A DNA stretch of 64,000 nucleotides from Chamaesiphon sp. (GTDB lineage Bacteria; Cyanobacteriota; Cyanobacteriia; Cyanobacteriales; Chamaesiphonaceae). The translations under genes were made by a program, and so were the position numbers. Positions 25,369 through 39,133 of the stretch are shown piece by piece. The notes beneath the pieces were generated by a model. It was given only the letters and a program-made list of their open reading frames with translations. It was not told where the DNA came from and did not search any database. Positions within the stretch are counted from its first letter, which is position 1, and the number at the start of each line of letters is the position of its first letter. The DNA is taken from the NCBI GenBank assembly GCA_965246715.1, contig CBDFFH010000022.1:64001-128000 (forward strand), read 5' to 3'.

Positions 25369-25398
25369 GGTAGGGGCAATTCATGAATTGCCCCTACC
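25369..25398. repeat. Perfect 30-bp REP-like palindrome; contains two perfect IS110 target sites
   Basis: ggtaggggcaattca|tgaattgcccctacc. Confidence 0.9.
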
Positions 25399-25412: not shown

Positions 25413-25545
25413 GGCGTTGCTGAATTAATGTATGAAACGCACAAACAATTTTTGTAGGGGTAATGCCTCGTGCTTACCCCGCATCGATTCAGGGTACTCA
25501 CAAGGGGCACCCCTACAAAAAATCATACCCATATTCAGCAACGCC
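25413..25545 (-). mobile_element. MITE family A, short copy
   Basis: TIRs GGCGTTGCTGAAT/ATTCAGCAACGCC. Flanked by direct repeat aatttggcgtg (25402-25412 and 25546-25556). Reverse complement of the 38953 copy without its internal hairpin module. Confidence 0.85.
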
Positions 25546-28109: not shown

Positions 28110-29567
28110 ATGAAAAACCTACCGATCGTGACGGGGATTGTTGGCTGCTCGCTAGCATTGAGTTTATCCGGCGAAGCCGCTCGTGCTTCTAGCTTGGGAA
28201 TCGATCCGAGTATTCAAAGCCAGTTTAATATTACGCCGTTTGCTACGGGTTTGGATTTTCCTAATGGGATCGCACAACTCAGCGATGGTTCGCTGTTAGT
28301 CGGCACCAGTCAGGGGAATGGCTACTTCGATCCGCAAGCAAAAGGTCAACTCGTGCGCTTTCAAGATACTAACGGCGATGGTGTTGCCGATAGTAAAACG
28401 GTTTTGTATGACGGATCGAGAGCTGGGAATAATTTACCTGGTGGGATTACCGCAATTCGATCGATCGACAACTACTTATTTGTCGCCAGCGACTTACCCA
28501 GTAAATATCGCATTTCCGTGTTCCAACAGGGCACCGATTTCAGCGCTGATTCTTTGGCTTTAAAAGGTTCGCTCGACTTCGCTTATCCTGCTTCATACAT
28601 CCATCCCTCATCGGCTTTAGCAGTTCGTCAAACTGCAGGACAACAATATGAGCTATTCTTTAATGTCGGCTCGGCTGGAAATAATCAAATAACTACTCCA
28701 GGAACTGTCACTGTCAATAGCGGAATTTTTAATGTTGCGGCAACTCTCAATGGTGATTCTATTTATAAACTGCCGATTACTATTGGTACGTCGAATTTAA
28801 CTATTGCCAACCCCGTGCAAGTTGCGAGTGGATTGCGGAATGCAGCGGCGCTGGAATTCGATCGCATGACAGGCGCTTTGTATATTGGTGACAATGGCAT
28901 CGATGGTTTGACAAATGCTAATAATGCCCTGACAGCAGACGAACTAAATCGATTAACCACCGCTCAGCTTGCTAGTGGCGATATCAAAAACTTTGGGTTT
29001 CCCAATTATAGTGAAAAATACGATAACCCCGGCGTGTATATCGATGGGAACGATCGAATCGTTAGCAAAACCGACCCAAATTGGATCGACCCCCTGGCCA
29101 CTTTTCAGCCACTGACAAACCCACCGCCAGATTCTGATAGTGAAGGGGTTGCGTCGATCTCATTTGCACCCAAAAACTTTCCGACAGGAACGAATAATGG
29201 TGCTTTTGTGGGCTTTTTCGGTCGGTTCGGATATCAATCGGGCGACGATCGCGAAAACCCATTAGTTTACTACGATCTCGATACTGGGCGCTATTTTCAT
29301 TTTCTCAGCAGTAAGTATCCTGGTGGCGATTTCGGTCACTTTACCAACTTATTATCCACTCAAGACACGCTGTTTACTGTAGATATCGCAGCTGGATCTG
29401 GCTCGCTGTTTAGCTCGGCTGGTTTGGGTAAAGGCGCGATTTACCAAATTACATCCTCGTCACTCCCAGCTCAGTCTGTCCCCGAACCATCAACACTCTT
29501 GGGTACGCTCGTCACCCTGGGTTGTGGGATCTGGCTTAAACGCACGGTTAAGCACTCAGGTCGTTAA
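28110..29567 (+). CDS. PEP-CTERM-anchored beta-propeller (glucose/sorbosone dehydrogenase-like)
   Basis: Signal peptide, GLDFPNG, GLRNAAAL, DELN, NFGFP; C-terminal VPEPSTLLG + TM + KR. Confidence 0.8.
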   Translation: MKNLPIVTGIVGCSLALSLSGEAARASSLGIDPSIQSQFNITPFATGLDFPNGIAQLSDGSLLVGTSQGNGYFDPQAKGQLVRFQDTNGDGVADSKTVLYDGSRAGNNLPGGITAIRSIDNYLFVASDLPSKYRISVFQQGTDFSADSLALKGSLDFAYPASYIHPSSALAVRQTAGQQYELFFNVGSAGNNQITTPGTVTVNSGIFNVAATLNGDSIYKLPITIGTSNLTIANPVQVASGLRNAAALEFDRMTGALYIGDNGIDGLTNANNALTADELNRLTTAQLASGDIKNFGFPNYSEKYDNPGVYIDGNDRIVSKTDPNWIDPLATFQPLTNPPPDSDSEGVASISFAPKNFPTGTNNGAFVGFFGRFGYQSGDDRENPLVYYDLDTGRYFHFLSSKYPGGDFGHFTNLLSTQDTLFTVDIAAGSGSLFSSAGLGKGAIYQITSSSLPAQSVPEPSTLLGTLVTLGCGIWLKRTVKHSGR

Positions 29568-29709
29568 ACTGGACTAACTTATCGATCGCTTAGCAGCTAC
29601 CGTAGCCGATCGAGATATGCTATGCTAGGCGACATTCGAGTTCTAGTCCGCAGTATCATGCCTGCGATCGTGTTGATGATATTTTCAGTTTTATTAGTAG
29701 ACAGCACTC

Positions 29710-29916
29710 GTGCTGCTAAGGAGGATGGTCGGATCTAAGTGTTTCGACCATTCGGTGCTAGACGTTGAGGCGAGACTAGCTCAGGCTCACAGACTTTCCA
29801 AAGATCGTGCCTATCGCGATGCCTCGGGACTATTTTTTATTGAAGGCGTTCGCAATTTCGTTCGGTTAGTAGATAATAAATTTGAGCTAGCGACGATTTT
29901 ATTTAGTGAGAAATTG
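29710..29916 (+). pseudogene. 5' fragment of a TrmH/SpoU-family RNA methyltransferase, truncated by MITE A
   Basis: RAYRDASGLFFIEGVRNF resembles the SpoU N-terminal domain; the frame enters the MITE TIR at 29917 and no 3' part follows. Confidence 0.65.
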
Positions 29917-30069
29917 GGCGTTGCTGAATATGGGTATGATTTTTTGTAGGGGTGCTCCTGTCTTGTCGTTTTTTTATTCGGGGGGAACCCCCGAATAAAA
30001 ACGCCGCTTGTGGGTACCCTGAATCGATGCGGGGTAAGCACGAGGCATTACCCCTTGTATCCTAAAGGA

Positions 30070-30282
30070 AGGTCAAAGAGTAAAATCGTAAGACCGAGCA
30101 TCAACAGCAAAAGGGAAAGGGAAATTCGGATTGCCCCTAGGGACACCAAGCCCGTTAAGTAGATCGAATTACCTTAACCTAAACAGTGGAACCAGTCAAA
30201 GCTGGACAGTATCAGAGGTCGTCCCAAACGGGTAAACCTGCATTTACAAGGATAGTTTATCGCCACTAATTGCTGTTGAAGC
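30070..30282 (+). ncRNA. Putative IS110 bridge RNA (ends approximate)
   Basis: Target loop ATTGCCCCT (30130-38) + GTAG (30159-62) closed by aattcg/cgaatt. Donor loop ACAGTATC (30206-13) + TACAAG (30245-50) closed by agtgg/ccact. Confidence 0.85.
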
Positions 30283-30308
30283 AGTCCATTAGCAGATAGG
30301 AACTGGCC

Positions 30309-31301
30309 ATGAGTAATTCAAACGAAGAGTTAGACATACTCGGTATCGACATCAGCAAAGCCAAATTTGACGTAGCCTTACTCAAAAACAACGGCAAAGA
30401 CAAAATCAAAAGCAAGGTATTTGCGAATACCCCAGAAGGGTTTGAGCAATTACAGGAGTGGCTAAACAGCCAAGGAGTAACCAAACTACATGGCTGCATG
30501 GAAGCAACTAGCATTTACGGAAATGCCCTAGCCAGATTTCTAGTTGCAGCAGGATACATCGTAAGTATCGTTAATCCATCCCGTCCAAAAGCATTTGGAC
30601 GAAGTGAATTAAGTCGGACGAAAACCGATCGTGCGGATGCAAAAGTGATTGCCAGATTTGGCGCGGCATTACGCCCAGCACCCTGGACTCCTCCAGCGAT
30701 CGAAGTCGAACAACTTCAAGCTTTGGTTCATCGCTGGGATAGTTTGACTGCCATGCAGCAACAAGAGCAGAATCGACTCGAAACGGTTGACCCAATTTTA
30801 GTCGAGGCGATCGCCGCACATATTGACTTCCTCAAGCAACAAGTTGCTGCGACTCAACAACTGATTCGCGACCATTTCGATCGATCCCCCACTCTTAAAG
30901 CTCAACGAGATTTACTGATTTCGATGCCAGGTATTGCCGCCGCTACTGCAACGGTAATACTAGCCGAAATTCGCGATGTGGCTACCTTTGACAGTGCCGA
31001 CCAGCTTGCTGCTTTTGCGGGTTTGACCCCGCATGAGTTTTCTTCTGGTTCCTCTGTTCATGGCAAACCCCGTTTGTCTAAGATCGGTAACGCTCGTTTG
31101 AGAAAGGCTCTCTATCTGCCTGCGATTGTTGCTCGTCGCGATCATCCCTTGATTCAGGTTTTTTGCGACCGTCTGTTGGCTAAAGGTAAGTCGAAAATGG
31201 CGATGATTGGTGCTGCTATGCACAAACTTCTGCGCCAGGTCTTTGGTGTGCTGAAATCTCAACAACCTTTTGACCCGAATTTTCTTTCTCTTCTCTCTTG
31301 A
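30309..31301 (+). CDS. IS110-family DEDD recombinase/transposase
   Basis: GIDISK (D), MEATS (E), KTDRAD (DD), and AGLTP...SSGSS...SKIGNARLRKAL with the catalytic Ser; intact 330 aa. Confidence 0.96.
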   Translation: MSNSNEELDILGIDISKAKFDVALLKNNGKDKIKSKVFANTPEGFEQLQEWLNSQGVTKLHGCMEATSIYGNALARFLVAAGYIVSIVNPSRPKAFGRSELSRTKTDRADAKVIARFGAALRPAPWTPPAIEVEQLQALVHRWDSLTAMQQQEQNRLETVDPILVEAIAAHIDFLKQQVAATQQLIRDHFDRSPTLKAQRDLLISMPGIAAATATVILAEIRDVATFDSADQLAAFAGLTPHEFSSGSSVHGKPRLSKIGNARLRKALYLPAIVARRDHPLIQVFCDRLLAKGKSKMAMIGAAMHKLLRQVFGVLKSQQPFDPNFLSLLS

Positions 31302-31303
31302 CT
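31298..31303 (+). promoter_or_regulatory. -35 half (TTGACT) of the circle-junction promoter; the -10 half TATCCT is at 30058-30063
   Basis: Joining the ends gives TTGACT-ctcaagacagtatcttg (17 nt)-TATCCT. Confidence 0.75.
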
Positions 31304-31404
31304 CTCAAGACAGTATCTACCGATGTTTTCAGCGATGTTTAGATCGCCGATCGTACTTGCATTCAGCAACGCTCGTAATTTCTCAATCTGAATACTCGAT
31401 CGTG

Positions 31405-38952: not shown

Positions 38953-39133
38953 GGCGTTGCTGAATATGGGTATAATTTTTGTAGGGGTGCTCCTGTCTTG
39001 TCGTTTTTTTATTCGGGGGGAACCCCCGAATAAAAACGCCGCTTGTGGGTACCCTGAATCGATGCGGGGTAAGCACGAGGCATTACCCCTACAAAAATTG
39101 TTTGTGCGTTTCATACATTAATTCAGCAACGCC
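38953..39133 (+). mobile_element. MITE family A, complete copy (empty IS110 site)
   Basis: 13-bp TIRs, 8-bp TSD caaaagtt (38945-52 and 39134-41), internal hairpin ttttattcggggg/cccccgaataaaa. Confidence 0.9.

Follow-up and report, generated by a model that had tools for sequence, protein, structure and literature searches.

Background

The closest described relatives of the element analyzed here are IS621 of Escherichia coli (Durrant 2024, PMC11208160; Hiraizumi 2024, PMC11208158; PDB 8wt6) and ISCro4/IS622 (PDB 9t56; bioRxiv 10.1101/2025.05.14.653916). The mechanism of IS621 is described in the portions used here of PMC11208160, PMC11208158 and PMC13626964, and single- versus double-strand excision is debated in the available part of 10.64898/2026.08.31.748434. 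According to the same portions of Durrant 2024, the first loop of the bridge RNA is poorly conserved and the second is conserved much better, guides and insertion sites agree across thousands of orthologues, and the letters flanking the donor 14-mer covary within the family (PMC11208160). The consulted part of its Supplementary Data 2 includes two orthologue groups, TBL_TTCGCCCCTAC and TBL_GCCCACCCTAC, that resemble the present case, with guides ending in CCCTAC and insertion sites in GGGC...GCCCCTAC hairpins.

A cyanobacterial precedent is IS1594 of Anabaena (Choi 2003, through the relevant passage of the review PMC3184786), an IS110/IS492 element reported to insert into REP-like sequences; we liken it to the present cyanobacterial IS110 from the review's description. 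REPs of the GTAG family have a terminal GTAG and a short palindrome, are extragenic and multicopy, and include the families GTAG-12, -15 and -16 reported from cyanobacteria (Di Nocera 2013, PMC3733652, in the sections used).

The first-pass annotation of this locus had inferred a donor module conserved across phyla combined with a target loop naturally reprogrammed to an abundant host repeat. This inference corresponds to a published picture, because the loop and guide results of Durrant 2024 and the review's account of IS1594, as far as these sources were covered, already describe a conserved donor with a variable target loop; the element reported here is a new example and not a new mechanism. 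Neither its exact target 11-mer ATTGCCCCTAC nor the name IS1594 was found in the portions of the Durrant 2024 supplements searched.

The window is a stretch of 64,000 nucleotides from Chamaesiphon sp., and the genome that contains it is referred to as G000. The sequence GCGATCGC is very frequent in this genome, a frequency that we take to be a cyanobacterial marker, and the closest named relatives are Pseudanabaena records.

Element anatomy and donor junction

An intact IS110 element of approximately 1.26 kb occupies positions 30056-31318 (+) of the window. Its recombinase (330 aa, 30309-31301, +) scored above cut-off for PF01548 (97 bits) and PF02371 (87 bits), and it contains a DEDD RuvC domain and a Tnp domain with the catalytic serine; D14, E65, D107, D110 and S246 align with D11, E60, D102, D105 and S241 of IS621. 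Compared by protein, the best PDB match by score was ISCro4, which has the same architecture (E 5.5e-76), followed by IS621 (E 6.8e-73), and the identity to E. coli IS621 was 44%.

The left junction reads ATTACCCCT/TGTAT (30047-30055/30056-30060) and the right junction ACAGTATCT/AC (31310-31318/31319-31320). Fused over a single CT core, they form ACAGTATCTTGTAT (ACAGTAT-CT-TGTAT), a 14-nt sequence that equals the wild-type IS621 donor in the consulted part of Supplementary Table 2 of Durrant 2024. The first-pass annotation had taken this junction, subject to confirmation, to be the E. coli IS621 donor, and the identification was correct. Since a blastn search of the element against E. coli genomes gave no DNA match, IS621 was located instead by protein search in two E. 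coli chromosomes; TGTAT directly follows the left CT in all six printed left ends of the fetched loci, and ACAGTATCT/AC is present in all three printed right ends. A plasmid match (L001) was rejected as IS621 and represents a different IS110 element. The donor is thus conserved across phyla, with 14 identical nucleotides in the cyanobacterial element and E. coli IS621.

The CT core is present at both element ends, with no target duplication and no terminal inverted repeat, and empty sites read ATTRCCCCTAC. The left target half with the CT core (ATTACCCCT, 30047-30055, +) has one mismatch to the guide, at position 4, where an rG:dT wobble is predicted; the window copy therefore sits at a one-mismatch variant of the target, ATTACCCCT^AC, within a MITE arm, a point absent from the first-pass annotation. 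The right donor half TGTAT starts the element (30056-30060, +) and overlaps a predicted -10 box, TATCCT (30058-30063). The short right end (31298-31318, +) comprises a predicted -35 box TTGACT, the left donor half ACAGTAT and the CT core, so that TTGACT-17 nt-TATCCT would span the circle junction as a predicted promoter. Beyond the element are the right target half AC and a right flank (31319-31372, +) that does not complete the MITE whose arm is on the left: empty MITEs read on as ACAAAAATTG, and in the near-complete relative G325 the two flanks are separated by about 425 kb.

Features common to IS621 (parts of PMC11208160 and PMC11208158; PDB 8wt6) and the window element are the 14-nt donor, the left donor guide ACAGTATC, the right target guide GTAG, the handshake AT and the CT core. 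The DEDD residues with serine, the long left end and insertion at the CTAC terminus of a repeat of the GTAG type are also alike, and IS621's own target likewise has its mismatch at position 4 (PMC11208160, in the portion used). In contrast, the left target guide of IS621 is ATCGGGCCT (target ATCAGGCCTAC) and not ATTGCCCCT, the letters flanking its donor are ATA/TAT and not AAG/CCT, its right donor guide has G161 where the window element has A, and its right end is much longer. By every feature that could be assessed, the window element is a member of the IS621 clade, but it is not IS621. An isoform of IS621 itself was rejected on the 44% protein identity, the absence of a blastn match in E. 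coli genomes, the other donor flanks, and the finding of zero sites for IS621's own targets in G000. Cross-reaction with the IS621 donor is plausible, although it does not follow from the 14-mer alone because the flanking letters differ.

Predicted bridge RNA and proposed mechanism

In silico, the long left end is predicted to fold into a target loop and a donor loop whose guides match the target and the donor. The predicted bridge RNA covers 30070-30270 (+), with approximate boundaries and two internal-loop hairpins, and the guide positions within it were assigned using IS621 as a template. The putative left target guide (LTG) ATTGCCCCT lies at 30130-30138 (+); it is the most variable block among relatives and agrees with their insertion sites. 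The predicted right target guide (RTG) GTAG with the handshake AT (30159-30164, +; GTAG 30159-30162) is identical to that of IS621, as is the predicted left donor guide (LDG) ACAGTATC (30206-30213, +). The candidate right donor guide (RDG) AT-tt-ACAAG (30242-30250) and the handshake GA together occupy 30242-30252 (+), numbered by analogy with IS621 A157-U167.

Among 12 close cyanobacterial relatives, positions 1-4 of the LTG are the most variable, and the LDG is unchanged in all 12 aligned sequences. Seven of the 32 predicted bridge-RNA pairs changed on both sides (compensatory changes) across these relatives, six of them around the target loop. An Rfam search with the predicted bridge RNA matched no family.

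It is very probable that the window holds an intact IS110 element of the IS621 clade with IS621 donor ends, whose putative left-end bridge RNA would direct it into ATTRCCC-CT-AC, where a GTAG-type palindromic repeat ends. The catalytic residues, the CT core without duplication, the donor and guide sequences and the locations of the copies are read directly from the DNA, and the steps of movement are modelled on IS621. By this analogy, the element would be excised as a circle whose junction would form the promoter TTGACT-17-TATCCT. The donor loop would pair with ACAGTAT-CT-TGTAT and the target loop with ATTGCCCCT (an rG:dT wobble being allowed at position 4) and CTAC; the handshake bases would favour strand exchange, and a recombinase tetramer would join donor and target at CT. 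The locus adds one more natural IS621-clade orthologue, from a cyanobacterium, with fully readable guides.

Target sites and their carriers

The 11-mer predicted as target from ATTGCCCCT and GTAG, ATTGCCCCTAC, has 76 sites in the genome versus 4.6 expected under a 5th-order Markov model, and its position-4 variant ATTACCCCTAC has 39 versus 4.7. None of the other single-base variants exceeded 18 sites or was enriched more than about 3-fold. By a crude mask of ORFs of at least 130 aa, which cover 77% of the genome, only 8 of the 76 ATTGCCCCTAC sites and 6 of the 39 ATTACCCCTAC sites are inside such ORFs. The remaining 68 of the 76 ATTGCCCCTAC sites are in agreement with the first-pass expectation of many non-genic landing sites, and the host offers this candidate recombinase about 115 mostly non-genic sites.

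Within the window, an empty perfect GTAG palindrome of 30 bp (25369-25398) carries a perfect ATTGCCCCTAC in each arm, as had been noted from the sequence at first pass. The near matches that had been reported together with it, at 39082-39092 (+) and 25454-25464 (-), are both ATTACCCCTAC; they lie in an empty 181-bp MITE (38953-39133, +) and in an empty 133-bp MITE of the same family (25413-25545, -), respectively. The exact 28-bp palindrome has 18 copies in the genome and was found in 12 of 201 sampled genomes representing nine genera, and so it is not host-specific.

The target repeat has the features of GTAG-family REPs, namely a terminal GTAG, a short palindrome, multiple copies and extragenic location. 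It had no match in the portions of the supplements of Di Nocera 2013 (PMC3733652) that were available, and it differs from those REPs in that many copies here are carried in IS1-type MITEs. The subfamily targeted by the window element was found at none of six Y1_Tnp loci in G000 and, at a distance of about 0.9 kb from Y1_Tnp, in one of 30 loci fetched from five other genomes; no RAYT gene flanked by the exact window palindrome was found among these 6 and 30 loci. At L082 (G000:C34:102798-106070), L084 and L085, Y1_Tnp (RAYT-like) genes have GTAG palindromes of other subfamilies alongside.

The insertion site of the window copy is carried by the left arm of a 182-bp MITE (29917-30055, +), which has the 13-bp terminal repeat GGCGTTGCTGAAT and is 98-100% identical to empty copies of 181-182 bp. 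MITEs bounded by GGCGTTGCTGAAT range from 37 to 184 bp, carry several kinds of GTAG palindrome and hold 38 of the 115 empty sites. The same terminal repeat is common to 17 IS1-like-looking elements of 827 or 850 bp, most of them with 8-bp flanking duplications. The first ORF of the 827-bp element scored 22.5 bits against the InsA C-terminal family PF12759, under the cut-off of 24.9; we read this element as presumably encoding a frameshifted InsA/InsB.

Copies in the genome and their flanks

The lineage of the window element (lineage A) is represented in G000 by four full copies, two left-end fragments and one internal-deletion derivative of about 100 bp. One full copy, in contig C43, has approximately 220 bp inserted in its bridge RNA. 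The first-pass annotation had expected flanks of the form ATTRCCCCT^AC and had named copies in unrelated sequences as the observation that would speak against it. The left ends of the seven copies read ATTGCCCCT (three), ATTACCCCT (three) and ACTGCCCCT (one), thus all are the target motif or one mismatch away from it, and AC follows the right end in all four full copies. The observation that would have spoken against the first-pass reading was therefore not made. CC follows the right end of the mini-derivative, and an orphan right end has GG next to it. The count of seven out of seven overstates the number of insertion events, because the copies are not independent: the flanks of three copies are permuted, and the copies in contigs C15 and C47 share a left flank and a variant start.

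This variant start is TGGAT, a T-to-G change at donor position 12, found in the copies at C15:206112 and C47:100231, which share about 47 bp of left flank. Position 12 is absent from the paired positions listed for the IS621 structure, and the predicted -10 box begins with it, so the TGGAT copies lack the first T of that box.

A possible reading, though on balance a doubtful one, is that part of the copy number arose by movement together with flanking DNA, either inside an IS1-type MITE or by recombination between copies, and not by guided insertion. Both full copies that start with TGTAT share one MITE arm, just as the TGGAT copies share another left flank; the 8-bp duplication of the MITE, AGAAATTG, is distributed over the contigs C22 and C15, and the site is empty in G325; and, relative to G325, the copies at C22:94056 (the window copy), C47:100229 and C15:206110 have flanks that are permuted in a closed cycle of three. 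Just outside the C15 copy, within a few bases, a hybrid junction suggests that a real exchange happened at least once. However, a wrong join made in assembly at the 1.26-kb repeat, whose copies are nearly identical, may account for the permutation, and no contig of the two sequencing runs examined spans the element. The interrupted C43 copy and all three lineage-B copies tested (see below) are syntenic with G325. Moreover, the copies of G325's own lineage have varied flanks yet sit at the same 11-mer, and the match between guide and site would be left unexplained by such movement.

Contigs of the two runs (X1 and X2) differ at 0-1 positions over the element (30229-31277) and at 36-50 positions in 1.4 kb over the left flank (28500-29916), a contrast that may reflect either a mixture of strains or recent spread from strain to strain.

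The choice of site may also depend on the target hairpin, so that sequence and DNA structure would act together, as for ISPpu10 (the parts used of bioRxiv 10.64898/2026.03.19.712850), and base pairing would be only part of the address. We regard this as unlikely. The sites that hold copies lie in palindromes or imperfect hairpins, and an inverted GTAGRG is present within 30 nt at 50 of the 76 empty perfect sites; but most available sites are palindromic anyway, only a partial palindrome is present at some copies (C22:145016 and a lineage-B copy in C14), and the relative L025 sits at a site without a visible palindrome.

A second lineage and relatives in other genomes

A second IS110 lineage in G000 (lineage B; one copy each in C5, C14 and C34, and two in C15) is 56% identical to the first, has the same 14-nt donor and carries the guide CCCGCCCCT. 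All five of its left ends are at CCCRCCCCT^AC, and the repeat subfamily that it targets flanks the Y1_Tnp gene at G000:C34. One lineage-B copy is separated from a lineage-A copy by about 130 bp and has the opposite orientation.

In G325, the resident lineage (75% identical, same guide) has seven of seven copies at ATTGCCCCT^AC and one fragment at ATTGCCCCT, giving eight of eight left ends at this site. A relative in G302 has the guide ATTACCCCT and sits at ATTACCCCT^AC. There are 99 ATTGCCCCTAC sites in G327, yet its 81%-identical element has the guide ATTATGCCT, which shows that relatives are not always aimed at the abundant repeat of the host. G326 has 14 ATTGCCCCTAC sites versus five empty sites for the guide of its own element, TCTGCCCCT.

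We surveyed the clade at 96 loci, of which 16 were chosen from genome and plasmid searches and 80 came from metagenomes. A left end and a donor guide were readable in 73 of them, the other 23 being dropped as truncated or unparsed, and the right guide was GTAG in 66 of the 73. The 34 unique guides had on average 1.26 mismatches in seven positions to their own site versus 3.76 +/- 0.20 for shuffled guides (lowest of 10,000 shuffles, 2.91), a comparison that is not a formal test because the caller required GTAG and the relatives are not independent. At most one mismatch was seen in 25 of the 34, and 28 of the 34 end in CCCT. Four guides have mismatches to their site at 5-6 of the seven positions; two of these look like miscalls (L003, L109) and two look real (L005, L132). 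The series, with the same donor and at least 34 guides, is natural material for studying change in the target loop. In OY969811.1, the pairs L019/L020 and L021/L022 each consist of two copies lying back to back, with insertions in both arms of a single long repeat.

The GTAG guide half is common to IS621 and the window element, so that the clade as a whole follows GTAG-type repeats: together with IS621, its members retain the donor and the guide half that reads GTAG, and move between subfamilies of GTAG repeats. The wider clade would hold the donor and this guide half and vary mainly the first LTG bases, by which its lineages would become spread over different repeat subfamilies. By a quick tree, the window element falls, as does the G325/G302 lineage, at the unresolved base of their 18-member clade, and ATTRCCCCT may consequently be ancestral there.

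The strong form of the first-pass proposal, in which an IS621-like target loop was redirected specifically in this host to the commonest of its repeats, is quite unlikely. In its favour, the target shows an enrichment of about 16-fold and is mostly non-genic, the two lineages of the same genus that have this type of guide both occupy the repeat, and relatives in other hosts have other guides. Against it, the palindrome is common to nine genera, GCACCCCTAC is commoner in the genome (108 sites) without holding any copy, the relatives in G327 and G326 aim elsewhere despite their ATTGCCCCTAC sites, ATTRCCCCT may be the ancestral target, and the RTG GTAG, handshake AT and CT core are unchanged from IS621, with mainly LTG positions 1-4 varying. 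From the first-pass proposal of reprogramming we therefore keep that the target loop differs from IS621 and fits the sites of the copies (all seven in G000, non-independent as they are, and all eight in G325), and set aside that this is new or particular to the host.

Possible guide borrowing between lineages with the same donor

The genome G089 holds an element with the guide GAAACCCCT that sits at ACCGCGACT^AC; the loci concerned are G089:C20 (L005/L227) and G089:C93 (L011/L228). The ACCGCGACT site agrees at nine of nine positions with the guide of another resident element, 66% identical to the first, and mismatches the first element's own guide at six of seven. All three left ends seen in this genome are at the ACCGCGACT site, and the remaining two have the guide that matches it. 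The ACCGCGACT site is enriched (14 versus 4 in the control), whereas the element's own target is not (4 versus 24). Close relatives carry TAAACCCCT, and hence the GAAACCCCT guide probably did not decay in place.

The simplest reading of this single case from a draft genome hints that the element borrowed the bridge RNA of the resident through the shared donor. A rival explanation is that the element's own guide pairs across a 3-nt bulge, which was considered because tolerance of target insertions has been reported. We put forward as a tentative generalization, somewhat short of probable, that the conserved donor acts as a shared plug: where IS110 lineages with one donor reside together, each could use the bridge RNAs of the others, and an incoming element could land at the target of the resident. 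Action of the machinery of one element in trans is published in the sources covered, and a thin search of part of the literature retrieved no report of guide borrowing between lineages. In G000, each of the two same-donor lineages stays within its own repeat subfamily (seven of seven and five of five), with no cross-insertion among these 7 + 5 left ends. If guide borrowing occurs, the conserved donor would matter in nature, through borrowed guides and mobilised mini-elements, and resident relatives in other hosts could move engineered cassettes with the IS621 donor.

Derivatives and remnants

The mini-derivative of lineage A (G000:C54:20140-20245, about 100 bp) has both ends, no guide loops and no ORF, and the same junction is present in contigs of two runs of one study. 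Its counterpart is at the orthologous position in G325 (G325:C3:365217-365377). We rejected a mobile derivative, since one copy here and one at the orthologous G325 place give no sign of movement.

A repeat with the ends CGTCAGTTCGGG and CCCGAACTCACG splits the bridge RNA of the C43 copy between its loops (G000:C43:136210-136420), and the same repeat adjoins the C47 copy (C47:99835-100181). Lone left-donor halves (AAGACAGTATCT) without an element occur at L040 (G325:C3:1061490-1061510) and at G000:C47:47797; one of them, inside a palindrome arm, is possibly the scar of a deletion across a shared CAAGACA.
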